DNA of 64,000 nucleotides from NCBI GenBank assembly GCA_951406725.2, contig OX597834.1, forward strand, positions 21,142,001-21,206,000, read 5' to 3'. Source of the DNA: Octopus vulgaris. Taxonomy: Eukaryota. The notes beneath the pieces were generated by a model. It did not search any database. It had not been told where the DNA came from and saw only the letters and a program-made list of their open reading frames with translations. A program made the translations under genes and the position numbers. This document shows positions 5,518-42,414 of this stretch, piece by piece. How positions within the stretch are numbered: the first letter of the stretch is position 1; each line of letters begins with the position of its first letter.

Positions 5518-5789
5518 CCTCTCTCTCTCTCTATCTGCTATGCTTACCACTTCTATAGAATTGTGTTTCTGTAATGAACTATCTTCTAATTAAATTCAGG
5601 TGTGGAGTGGGGCTGGGGGGGGGGGGGCTAGATAGCTGGTATAGCTGTCAAACTCTCTCATTCCTACTGCATTCCTGTATACATATGTTTATTAGTATGT
5701 ACACATATAAAACACATACCTGCCTGTCTGTCTTTTTGCCTGTCTGTCTTTCTGCCTGTCTGTCTTTTTGCTTTATCTATCTGTCGATC

Positions 5790-8399: not shown

Positions 8400-8527
8400 C
8401 AAATTAGAGATAAAACCACTATTAGGCAAATCATACAATGAAAAACTTAAAGCCAATACATAAGATTAATTAATTTATATTATTTTAAATATATATCAAA
8501 ATTATTAAAAAAAGATAATTAGTATAA

Positions 8528-8590
8528 CACTACGATCGTTTCATGGCTGTCCAATTCATAAAAATTTGAGTTACAGTCATTCTTCAGGTG
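8528..8590 (-). ncRNA. Minimal type-I hammerhead ribozyme (Penelope-like element end)
   Basis: Minus strand: cac CTGAAGA atgactgt..acagccat GAAA CGATCG TA gtg; 7/8-bp stem II, palindromic stem III, GUA cleavage triplet. Confidence 0.8.
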
Positions 8591-9806: not shown

Positions 9807-10160
9807 ATTATTATTATGGCTGCCCCCTCGTTATCAAGTATGGCCATTGCACGAAGCTTAACTGTTACTGGTGCTGTGATCGAATGTGACTTTTTAGCCC
9901 AGCTAAAGATCTACAATGTCTTGTACAAAATTGGCAACTAAGACCTTTACTGGTAATAGCTGGCTTCATGTACCTTTGCATGTCGTTTAAGTCCTCCTGC
10001 CGAATTACACTCTCTTCCACATGCCCGACAGATATGATTAGTATGGTGTGTTACACCACCACCAGTGGCCAGTTTGTCACTTATCTGTCTCACTTTATGA
10101 CTACGAAGATGACTCTTGAGTCCAGCTTTACTGAGGCAGGGTCTTGCACAGACATTGCAT
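9807..10160 (-). pseudogene. 5'-truncated RTE-like LINE 3' end encoding three C2H2 zinc fingers
   Basis: CNVCARPCLSKAGLKSHLRSH, CRACGRECNSAGGLKRHAKVH and, after a frameshift, CQFCTRHCRSLAGLKSHIRSQH*; short 3' UTR and (TAA)n tail; sits inside (CATA)n. Confidence 0.75.
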
Positions 10161-10278
10161 ACATACATACATACATACATACACACACATACATGCATAC
10201 ATACATGTATGTATACATACATACATATACATACATACATATACATACATGTATACACAAACACACACACACACACAC

Positions 10279-10314
<36 letters not shown>

Positions 10315-10514
10315 GTGCGTGTATGAATGAATGACAAGCTTCTTTTAGTTTCCATCTATCAAGTCTTTTCTCACGATTTTGGTCAGCTTGGGACAACAGT
10401 TGAAGACATTAGCTCAAGGTGCTGTAGAATGGGATTGAACATGAAACCATGTGATTGGGAAGTGGACTGCTTAACCACCCAACTAGACCTGCATTTGGGT
10501 GGGTCAGAAGTTGT

Positions 10515-22751: not shown

Positions 22752-22793
22752 GTACCTGAAGAGACCCAGAATGGGTTGAAACATGTGTTGTAC
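22752..22793 (+). ncRNA. Minimal type-I hammerhead ribozyme
   Basis: gtac CTGAAGA GACCC agaat GGGTT GAAA CATGTG TT gtac; element ~22572-22840 lies between (TA)n tracts. Confidence 0.8.
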
Positions 22794-22852
22794 CTAATAA
22801 GGTCTGTTGCACATTTCATCTCCTATTTTATTAATATTGTTATATATATATA

Positions 22853-25890: not shown

Positions 25891-26403
25891 GCAGTAATTT
25901 TCGGTTGAAATATAAATCACTTTTGCTACTACTGGAAAAGAAGTAACACCATTTATCACTAACAGAGTATGTTACTAGTATTACCATCTATACATAATTT
26001 ATCTTAGTCCACCAAATCAGCAAAATACTCTTTAAGCTTATGAAGAATTTCTGCTTCATATTACGTCTTTAGTATCGTCTTACAGCTCAGACAACTACCA
26101 TAATACTGGAACATACTAATTTCAGTTAAGTAGGCGCTCACACATTTCATTATTAATACTTATTCTATACATTAAATAGGCTTTCACCTACTTAAATACC
26201 TAATTATTATGCAGATGCCATCTCAGAATAATTTTGTCTAATTTGCTCTTTCTCTTATTCTTGGCTGACAAATATACATTTTAGTAGGGTTACTTTACAC
26301 TTTGATCAACAATATTTTTTACTCAAGTACCAAATAAGTTCCTAGTTTATTAATTACATTACTTACATTTGATGAATATTTGTCCTCAACTTGTTTGTTA
26401 TTA

Positions 26404-26447
26404 ACACAACGTTTCGGTTGATGTACCCTCCAGCCTTCATCAGGTGT
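26404..26447 (-). ncRNA. Minimal hammerhead ribozyme of the Penelope-like element
   Basis: acac CTGATGA A GGCTG gagggtacat CAACC GAAA CG TT gtgt (one stem II mismatch). Confidence 0.8.
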
Positions 26448-39455: not shown

Positions 39456-40328
39456 TTGTTAAGTATGTATATGAAACTACTACTGCTTAATTGTTAGTAT
39501 TATATAGCAGCAGACTAGCTATATATGTAGCAGAACCAACACCACACACACACATACAGACGCATGCACATACACACACACGCGCGTGCATACACGCTCA
39601 CACAGTTGTCTGGTGTACTATTCTTCAGTCAGAATCACAGAATCAAAGAAATCTCAAGATATTTATCAACAGGAAACAGTCGCAGAAGTGTCTTGGCAAG
39701 TCATATATTCAATATGGAATACAGCTTTTGGCCTCCAAGCCAAATCTGCTGCTGCTTGATTGAAATTAACCATCATCATCATCATCATCATCGTCATCAT
39801 CATTATTGTTATTAGTGAGAGAGCTGTAATGGTGTCCATGACAACATCAAATGGTGTGGTGTGATCATCACACTAATGCGGTTTTAGTTTCGTGGTTGCA
39901 GTCATCCACTTCTGTTTGTGTCGTTGAGTTCTTCCGATAGAAAGAGATTTCGTTCCTTTCTGGTCTTGGAAATTCTCGGACAGGCCGAGAAATGGTGAAG
40001 TTTAATGTGTGACTACAAAAGTAATCATGTGCTTTCAGGTTCAATCCCTTTGTGTGGTACTTTGAGCAGGTGCCCCTCTAGATTAGTTCCTGGGTTAACC
40101 AATGTCTAGAAAGTGAGTTCGTTGACAGAAAACTGTGTGGAACCTTGCTGTGTGTGTGTGTGTGTGTGTATGTGTCTGTGTGCATGTGTGTGTCTGTGTG
40201 CACGTGTGTGTGTGCGCCAAAAGTAAAGACATTTGAAAGATGCATCCGAACTTAATAGGTTGTACTTTTTGCATATGGGACTCCGGTACCGTTATTCATC
40301 TTGTACAGCATATTATGCTCATAACAAA

Positions 40329-40390
40329 CTGCGCTGACGAAGCTACAGATATCCTTGTGATATTAATAGCTGAAACCGTTCGGTACGCAG
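40329..40390 (+). ncRNA. Intact type-I hammerhead ribozyme
   Basis: ctgcg CTGACGA AGCTA (21-nt loop) TAGCT GAAA CCG tt CGG TA cgcag; all core bases canonical, three perfect stems, predicted cleavage after A40385. Confidence 0.9.
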
Positions 40391-40655
40391 GTGATTATTC
40401 CATTTCGTATATTTCTTTTGTCTTACCTATTGCTTTAGGTCGTGCTGAATTTTATTTTATTTGAGAACAAAATCTTTGTGGAGAATGGCGATTTGACGTC
40501 TATATCTAGCATGTTGACTGTCCACTTTTTCGTGTTCAGTCCTTAATTGGTAAATATATATATATATATACTGGCGCAGGCCTGGTTGTGTGGTAAGAAA
40601 CTTGCATGGCACATTGAGGAAGGGTCTTCTACTATAACCTTGGGCTGACCAAAGC

Positions 40656-40922
40656 GGCGATCTTTCGATACTAGTAACATAACTGTCACTTATAAACCAA
40701 GTGGGTTTATTTACATTTCTGAAGATATATATATGTACATGCATACACTGTGCACTGTAACCTTTTCAATTAAATGTACACTCACAACATAGGTGTCAAC
40801 CCAGTGACCCCCTGCTCACGATGTCACGCAGTTTATGTATGTATATATATATCTTCAGAAATGTAAATAAACCCACGTGGTTTATAAGTGACATTTATGT
40901 TACTAGTATCGAAAGATCGCCA
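40656..40922. repeat. ~95-bp inverted repeat pair
   Basis: 40656-40751 is the reverse complement of 40828-40922. Confidence 0.85.
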
Positions 40923-41339
40923 AAAATTATTTACTTAGTGTAAAAAAAATTATTTATTTTGTGTTTTATTTACTTTGCTAGGTAGTCGTTGTAGGATCGA
41001 CTAGTCACGACTAGCTAGCGCGGATGCGCGAGTACGCGAGTGTGCACATCGGGATCACTCTTCTTAAATAGTACCCGAATTCTATGGAGATTTCAGTTCC
41101 ATCTTTTACCATCTTGGGCTCTTCATTCATTTTCTTCATTGCGCTTGTGTATTCACAAATGAGTTCATTACCTTCGTAAGTAGATGGGACAACAGTAACA
41201 CTTGTTTTTAGGTTCCTCCTATTTCATTTTCTTTGTATAATTCTGTTGTGTTCTCAGCATCATGTTCAGGAAATAATCTCCTATATGTTTGTTCAGCATA
41301 CTTCCTTAAATGTTGTTTCGTTAAAAAATATAAAAGGCC

Positions 41340-41900
41340 CAGAATTTGACTCACCCTTAAATTTCCTTGGGTTATGTAAATACCCCAAGAGAGTCAAGGT
41401 TTCAACATTCCTTCTCTTATTATATCTATGCATGTCTTTCAAGAAGATTTAGAACCAAAGGGTTGCCGACGATATTAAGTTTATTCCATAATAAAGAAAT
41501 TATCAAGTTTATTCCATAAAAATTCTATTGAATATTCTGCTTTCAGTAAACCTGTATCATCAGCGTAAATAACCTTCAAAATAATTTCTACTGAATGCAG
41601 AATTTCATATAGTAAATTGAGAGATTTCCATTCTTCGTCAGCGACGGCATCTGTGGAAAGTTCTGGAAAGTTCTGCTCAATCATATGGAATGTGCTATTC
41701 TACCGAATTCTGCAATCCAGTATAAGTTTATATTCTCTGTTATCAAAGTTCGCTCGTAGAAAATCTTGCAAAATTTCATTTTTTGTAGGAGATTTACGGA
41801 AAAGTTTTGAAATTTTTCTTACCTTTTTAAAAACTTTGTTAAATTCAGGTTTTGGCTGGGGAAAACAAGCATTTTCGTGAGCCAAATCTGTTTGACAAAG
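41340..41900 (-). pseudogene. hAT-superfamily transposase remnant
   Basis: KKVRKISKLFRKSPTKNEILQ...KLILDCRIR*NSTFHMIEQ (TRWNST motif with TGG>TAG), EEWKSL..., LGYLHNPRKFK. Confidence 0.85.
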
Positions 41901-42414
41901 TATGTCTTGTTGGCTTATGTCAGCTTCATCATTACTATCGTCTGTTATGGCGATCTCTTCACTTTTTTTATCAAAAAATTTAGTGTTACTTCTTGAAATG
42001 AATCTGGAACTGGTTATTACATATGCTCAACGGGGAAAGATCACCCGACTGAAGACTAACGACATCCCCTTGACTTGCTATGAATAAACTCAGTTACCTG
42101 CAAATTCAAAGAGACAGCCAGGGGTTAGCGAAGGAGATGACAAGGTGCTGATCAAGGGGAAAGAAGGTGAGAATTGATATGTTGCGATATGTTTCAATGA
42201 AACAGACAGCACTCTCAACTAAAGGTGACCGACAACAGTTCAGTTTCAACGATATTTCTTGAAAATAAAAAATGGAGAAATGTTTTTGGGGAAAAAAAAA
42301 TAAAAAGATCTTTTCACTTTGACCGGCACATTTAAAAAATAGTTATTTGTAATTAAACACTTTTAAACTTCGTACACTGGTAGAATGTGTTACATAAAAC
42401 ATCTTTTATTGAAA

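Follow-up and report, generated by a model that had tools for sequence, protein, structure and literature searches.

In the 64,000-nucleotide stretch of the Octopus vulgaris genome analysed here (contig OX597834.1, positions 21,142,001 to 21,206,000; the window), a type I hammerhead ribozyme motif occupies positions 40329–40390 of the plus strand, as read from the letters and recovered by a descriptor scan of the window. Stem I pairs CTGCG (40329–40333) with CGCAG (40386–40390), the core consists of CTGACGA (40334–40340) and GAAA (40372–40375), and stem II pairs AGCTA (40341–40345) with TAGCT (40367–40371). Loop 2 (40346–40366) reads CA(G) and (U)AA on either side of an extra hairpin formed by GATATC (40348–40353) and GATATT (40359–40364), and the GUA triplet (GTA, 40383–40385) places the predicted cut at 40385|40386. 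A distal helix, ATAA (40321–40324) with TTAT (40395–40398), extends stem I over 40321–40398 and closes an internal loop 1 that contains G1.6 (40391) and U1.7 (40392). A core of the form CUGANGA ... GAAA ... UH, three helices and an open stem I, by which type I hammerheads are recognized, are all present. A sequence-only reading of the same DNA had placed a hammerhead here with these stems, hairpin and triplet and with the same cut, and the letters and the scan bear it out. Its closure of stem III (ACCG, 40375–40378, with CGGT, 40381–40384) by a 2-nt loop has to be dropped. A hairpin loop of 2 nt is sterically unable to close, so the monomer form of stem III is an A–U and two C–G pairs (40375–40377 with 40382–40384) under a GUUC loop.

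A descriptor with stems of at least 5, 5 and 2 bp matched the window at 40329–40390 alone and none of 100 shuffled windows, in keeping with the earlier ranking of this motif as the best hammerhead in the window. The stem II pair beside the core is A10.1–U11.1, so that the closing pair is present; this pair is usually G–C in hammerheads, according to PMC4209133, and over 41 variants of the family it is AU in 21, GC in 12, GU in 7 and unpaired in 1. In the literature as far as our search reached into it, no measurement of an A10.1–U11.1 substitution was found. An Rfam search returned no hammerhead family at the gathering score, nor at E values of up to 10, for which the long insert in loop 2 is the likely reason. 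Rfam matches to MIR6217 and mir (40154–40906) fell below the gathering score and were rejected, their source being inverted and simple repeats. Elsewhere in the window, a second hammerhead candidate, of the minimal type, lies at 22752–22801 on the plus strand (stem I GTAC/GTAC, CTGAAGA, a 6-bp stem II and GAAACATGTGTT) and is probably the end of a Penelope-like element (PLE). Hammerhead-like cores at about 8515–8590 and at 26400–26445, both on the minus strand, have a short palindromic stem III (GAAACGATCGTA; GAAACGTT) and a weak stem I or II.

The hammerhead sits in a lone, 5′-truncated retrozyme copy on the plus strand, 40214–40552, which corresponds approximately to positions 165–504 of the 508-bp unit at locus L013. 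Homology with other copies runs over these positions and then gives way to (TA)n, and the bounds of 40217–40552 proposed from the letters fit such a repeat copy. The 3′ end at 40552 (...CCTTAATTGGTA) is the first of the family's fixed 3′ ends; it is followed by a (TA)n run (40553–40570), the presumed insertion target and primer, and the truncated 5′ end abuts a (TG)n microsatellite (40149–40213). No target-site duplication is readable at this copy, with (TG)n at its 5′ end. Its last segment (40462–40552, with TGACGTC at 40494–40500) belongs to the most strongly conserved part of the unit, of which it forms the 5′ half; in tandem copies this half pairs with the beginning of the following unit, which the window copy does not have. 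GC content is 36% over 40001–42000. Neither the rest of the window nor the 50 kb on each side yielded another copy of the family, and the window gave no PLE protein match. Just 3′ of the copy lies a MITE-like fold-back element (40656–40921; 78% self-inverted over 275 nt). Active loci, as delimited in the account of Li et al. 2026, have at least two consecutive complete units; the window copy is single and truncated. It is a truncated monomer derivative, and it cannot release unit-length RNA because it has a single cut site. TGACGTC, ATTGG and TATA-like motifs lie 3′ of the hammerhead and are read as a possible promoter, by analogy with the PLE terminal repeats (pLTRs) described in PMC6765202. 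The window copy itself would be transcribed by read-through only.

The family to which this copy belongs is large, as the copy-number check suggested by the sequence-only reading bears out. A relaxed hammerhead pattern has 830 matches in the 2.8-Gb genome (3 in the control), an exact 40-nt unit junction has 892 (0 in the control), and the exact 62-nt hammerhead occurs 9 times genome-wide, the window copy included. The unit is a non-coding tandem of 505–512 bp, with 507–508 bp in neighbouring copies; tandem periods of the extracted units are 504–512, apart from a 537-bp unit with an insertion and a 488-bp unit. Copies are dispersed on many chromosomes. A 336-bp query gave 45 matches, from 40 scored out of 867 candidates, to dispersed copies that are 93–98% identical, and subfamilies are about 70–95% alike to the reference units; the largest has stem I CCATG/CATGG and another stem III. 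At the level of the family, the units are short tandems with one type I hammerhead each, AT-rich and without protein-coding capacity, as expected of retrozymes. No reverse transcriptase (RT) or endonuclease (EN) match was found in the units, the frames of at least 120 amino acids in L001–L030 looking by eye like flank or simple repeat, and the insertion maps of 66 loci contain no LTR-type flanking pair. Contigs from 4 of 24 listed runs (3 presumed to be RNA, 1 of unknown type), placed on the L013 unit, cover parts of it in organisms A, B and C, and contigs of X1 and X4 contain a joint going back 508. Such a joint is expected from a tandem as well as from a circle, and these contigs carry no weight in what follows. 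Two further hammerhead families (L105, L106, L107 and L110; L108 and L109) have a common GAAAC(C/T)GNNCGGTA stem III and unrelated flanks.

We aligned 41 family variants, chosen by a core-based pattern that fixes the core and some loop letters and leaves pairing free. In this alignment, 97.0% of cells are paired and 12 of the 25 pairs have changed on both sides, which gives substance to the earlier description of the motif as intact. The covariation score is 0.403, compared with 0.03–0.08 (maximum 0.082) in slid controls, although the tool itself warns that relatedness of the sequences inflates such measures. In a shuffle test, 43 of 500 trials reached as many pairs with changes on both sides, and 0 of 500 reached the other paired-cell measures. 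Stems I, II and III all covary, distal stem I (ATAA/TTAT) has two compensatory pairs, and in loop 2 the flanking CA and UAA are conserved around an inserted hairpin that covaries and varies in length. Distal stem I, U1.7 and the loop-2 UAA had not featured in the sequence-only reading. The window copy has the contact nucleotides, U1.7 at 40392 and the loop-2 A at 40365–40366; structures of the Schistosoma and sTRSV hammerheads, as presented in PMC11875169, show U1.7 paired to the final A of loop 2, and by analogy U1.7 is the predicted partner of that A here. Because the 41-variant pattern demanded some of these letters, they were rechecked in loci selected by the junction only. There, the core is intact in 66 of the 70 units that span the hammerhead, and each of these 66 carries both U1.7 and the loop-2 UAA; most of the units belong to one young subfamily. 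The pattern of substitutions indicates that the hammerhead fold is under selection across the family.

Fold models, which omit core and loop contacts and had no known monomer-active control alongside, give stem III of the window motif −0.9 kcal/mol as a hairpin and −11.2 kcal/mol as a homodimer. The corresponding ranges in other subfamilies are −0.9 to +1.5 and −6.7 to −16.6 kcal/mol, and the monomer stem III of the window motif is the most stable among 9 variants (tied at −0.9). Placed in 1 kb of context, stems I and II are still predicted to form. The predicted pairing probability of stem III is about 0.02, owing to a competing fold in which the core pairs with this stem; the active hammerhead fold costs +2.7 kcal/mol and would be about 1% populated at 37 °C. 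In L002, a natural tandem with the identical motif, the double hammerhead costs 4.3 kcal/mol and two single ones 5.6, and the fold of the circular monomer is modestly more stable than 40 shuffles (z = −2.5). Reported rates cover a wide range: about 0.8 per min for a coral hammerhead monomer and about 0.1 per min for a mussel one, with invertebrate motifs whose helix III is two base pairs and a tetraloop self-cleaving as monomers, and 22% per hour for axolotl HHR_Amex2 (two pairs and a tetraloop), which cleaves better as a dimer (all as given in PMC7229834). Eight of nine predicted Xenopus retrozyme dimers are reported without cleavage (bioRxiv 10.64898/2026.07.22.740005). For the monomer competence raised by the sequence-only reading, the loop-contact nucleotides and the comparatively stable monomer stem III speak in favour; the low pairing probability of stem III, the competing fold and the preference for a double hammerhead in a natural tandem speak against. 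We lean slightly towards the window motif giving some monomer cleavage, and we estimate that cleavage would be faster in tandem than as a monomer.

If the lone copy were an efficient monomer, it might have been co-opted by the host and have a regulatory effect by cutting, at 40385|40386, a plus-strand transcript such as an intron or lncRNA. Such a role would fit the intact core, stems, U1.7 and loop-2 UAA, stems I and II that stay formed in 1 kb of context and the monomer activity of the invertebrate motifs with short helix III described in PMC7229834. It would also fit the distribution of differences: compared with the majority sequence of 10 further copies of its subfamily, the window copy is different in 6 of 344 columns. 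Three of these differences are private (40294, 40302 and 40426), and the hammerhead contains none of the six. However, six differences over 344 columns would miss a 62-nt motif by chance about 30% of the time. The rate of mismatch across the subfamily, 3 of 682 cells in the hammerhead against 62 of 2,984 elsewhere, is partly circular because the subfamily is defined by its hammerhead, and the subfamily comparison revealed no conservation or selection specific to the locus. With only three private differences, the window copy is, judged by its alignment, a young insertion. The CpGs that the sequence-only reading saw as retained are indeed there; eight other copies have the exact 62-mer with the same CpGs, which makes them a sign of youth and not of function. 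A search for host exons, which small exons and non-coding RNA would escape, also gave no match: among 150 of the 224 open reading frames (ORFs) of the window that were scanned, one exceeded the Pfam cut-off, a 61-amino-acid zinc-finger-like frame 30 kb away, and none of 108 filtered ORFs in the 100-kb flank matched. That frame (9868–10050) is one of two short minus-strand frames with weak C2H2 zinc-finger matches at 9868–10408, possibly the end of a retroelement ORF. The cutting of host transcripts implied by the earlier reading consequently finds no support in a young repeat copy with no locus conservation and no coding exon found, and we regard co-option as highly unlikely.

The ends of the copies record how the family spreads. 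The first 100 of the 892 junction matches come from 66 loci, all of which we mapped. This sampling forces one arm past the first 3′ site and so enriches arms that end at the second, the stop of the opposite arm being free. Almost all arms (124 of 129) end at one of two fixed AT-rich 3′ sites, the unit end and a site about 95 nt into the next unit. At 56 loci, two arms lie inverted and back to back, and 50 of these 56 use one site each. The 5′ ends are variable, with 77 of 124 at unit positions 351–450, on the 5′ margin of the region of highest conservation; the pile-up at the cut site (unit 343) that would be a sign of cleavage in vivo was not seen among these arms (7 of 124 in 301–350). Since 49 of the 124 arms run across at least one cut site and 14 across at least two, the template was a circle or an uncut multimer. 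Six arrays in a rolling-circle test have 0–2 mismatches between their own units compared with 3–6 to the nearest other array, and L141 and L142 have 1–6 and 2–4 within, respectively, compared with 4 between. Within-array identity is thus mixed, and does not settle circle versus multimer as the template. A (TA)n run follows 85 of the 124 segments in a strict test.

The conserved domain spans about 210 nt (unit 400 to 100), and its 5′ edge is the hot spot at which arms meet. The predicted fold of this junction domain is conserved, but changes on both sides occur in only 2 of 39 pairs, leaving it weakly supported. Many insertions among L154–L202 are two-armed, about 320 bp long and without a hammerhead, and invert at slightly varying points near unit 390–410; these copies are either independent events at the hot spot or a derived mini-family. 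A further rival is that the family is a satellite which DNA recombination has spread and in which the hammerhead is no more than a passive relic; in its favour are the tandem arrays, and self-cleavage is so far a prediction. Dispersal on many chromosomes, 3′ ends that are fixed and 5′ ends that vary on the ribozyme strand, and a fold kept by compensatory change among subfamilies only 70–95% alike all speak against it, and make such an origin extremely improbable. Insertions of Penelope-like elements are described as truncated at the 5′ end, arranged in partial tandems, accompanied by an inverted copy that is itself truncated, tailed at a single end and targeted to (TA)n (PMC8557442). The match between these marks and the footprint of the octopus family leads us to infer insertion of the Penelope type.

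The genome contains a potential source of enzymes, a PLE family with a 781-amino-acid frame for RT and GIY-YIG that is open in many copies and whose elements end in (TA)n. L091–L096 represent this young, abundant family. Their frames are 95–99% identical from copy to copy, a cysteine-rich linker is present, and ATTGG and TGACGTC motifs are numerous in the terminal repeat. Of six such elements examined in full, one, L096, is two-armed, and one of its arms bears a 30-nt tail. The 3′ repeat of L091 (about 5560–5605, plus strand) contains a hammerhead-like motif with a TTGATAA core, stem II GGTTC/GAACT, a palindromic ACATGT and a weak stem I, and the same core occurs in L077; its U3–A8 variant core is like that of Schistosoma PLEs as characterized in PMC4209133. 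A terminal repeat homologous to the retrozyme unit was not detected by blastn in 36 GIY-YIG loci or in the terminal repeat of the 781-amino-acid family, and the Penelope partner is inferred from the insertion footprint only.

Alternatively, the unit might be the terminal repeat of an undiscovered autonomous PLE, of which all copies are truncated ends. The insertion anatomy is the same as that of Penelope-like elements, Xenopus retrozymes are homologous to pLTRs according to bioRxiv 10.64898/2026.07.22.740005, and our scoring of GIY-YIG candidates covered the best 150 of 6,136. Nevertheless, arrays reach about 6.6 pure units without an ORF, and full units are directly preceded by flank or by another unit of identical type. 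PLE proteins had no match in L001–L060, L097–L110 or L111–L160. PLE fragments are present in 5 of 50 further loci, and in the one that we inspected (L201:2560–3400) the fragment proved to be an insertion of its own: a divergent PLE, short and two-armed, that lies beside the retrozyme insertion with (TA)n between them. L204, considered as two terminal repeats 5.6 kb apart, was rejected as a segmental duplication (99.7%). In the loci examined, the unit was never part of an autonomous PLE with an attached RT and GIY-YIG ORF, and we judge this alternative very unlikely.

We therefore favour, with considerable confidence, an explanation in which the hammerhead is the processing motif of a non-coding tandem family of 505–512 bp and the window contains a lone 5′-truncated copy, likely pasted into a TA repeat by PLE enzymes. 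Tandem arrays would be transcribed, and their hammerheads would cut the transcripts to unit-length RNA, more easily as double hammerheads; this RNA would probably be circularized. A Penelope endonuclease would cut (TA)n, and the DNA ends would serve as primers for reverse transcription, which would begin at either of two AU-rich sites separated by about 95 nt. The window copy would represent one arm, primed at the first site and stopped after about 340 nt; the only RNA that it could cut would be a plus-strand transcript reading through it, and as a monomer it would probably do so slowly. A bolder form of this explanation, which we offer tentatively and would put at less than even chances, is that the insertions record a Penelope enzyme copying ribozyme RNA, both cut ends of (TA)n priming at two sites inside the domain of about 210 nt. 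Recognition of this domain would allow an RNA that encodes no protein to use a Penelope RT even though the two share no pLTR sequence. The hammerhead, which has kept its loop contact despite the hairpin in loop 2, would switch between slow monomer and fast dimer cleavage.

The octopus sequences display the testable features of animal non-LTR retrozymes at family level. As in the metazoan families described in PMC7229834 and bioRxiv 10.64898/2026.07.22.740005, a short AT-rich non-coding tandem unit contains one type I hammerhead, monomers, dimers and multimers are dispersed, and PLEs are co-resident; helix III is short, as are the two pairs and tetraloop reported for axolotl HHR_Amex2 and invertebrate retrozymes. 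The unit of 505–512 bp exceeds the 150–450 bp given by Cervera & de la Pena 2020 (PMC7229834) but lies inside the 51–972 bp given by Li, Clavereau & Pollet 2026. The loop-2 hairpin distinguishes the octopus family from those retrozymes, as do two fixed 3′ ends and two-armed insertions, which are not among the features in the descriptions compared here; the octopus family is known here from genomic sequence, and its copy in the window would not count as active by the definition in Li et al. 2026. The family resembles EN+ Penelope-like elements as outlined in PMC4209133 and PMC8557442 (5′ truncation, partial tandems, an inverted 5′-truncated copy, a one-end tail and (TA)n targets), whereas its unit has no ORF, its tail is about 95 nt instead of 30–40 and it has no sequence homology to the pLTRs examined. 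It likewise shares type I topology and a self-complementary helix III with the pLTR hammerheads of PMC4209133, yet it is an extended canonical motif and not a minimal variant. Similarly, the cave-cricket pDo500 account (PMC2837043) describes a repeat of about 500 bp whose hammerhead is kept by compensatory changes that include 10.1–11.1, and a U seven bases past the cut is shared with Schistosoma Sm-alpha, as in the Schistosoma loop contact (PMC11875169). Compared by description with pDo500, Sm-alpha and newt satellite 2 (PMC6155905, PMC7229834), the octopus family is of low copy number, in dispersed short arrays, and does not make up several per cent of the genome.

A literature search found no description of a cephalopod-type retrozyme, and the supplements of PMC7229834 or of the bioRxiv preprint, or the paper by Lunse et al., may list the family. 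The octopus family is an addition to the known animal non-LTR retrozymes. The locus in the window matters little in itself, as one among hundreds of young copies for which no special role was found. Its hammerhead shows, in a natural setting, that loop 2 can carry an inserted hairpin while the contact nucleotides are retained. Mobilization of retrozymes by PLEs in animals was proposed earlier from co-occurrence and pLTR homology, as set out in bioRxiv 10.64898/2026.07.22.740005; the two-site, two-arm footprint provides genomic evidence for such mobilization, and names a candidate cis-element and the candidate priming sites.
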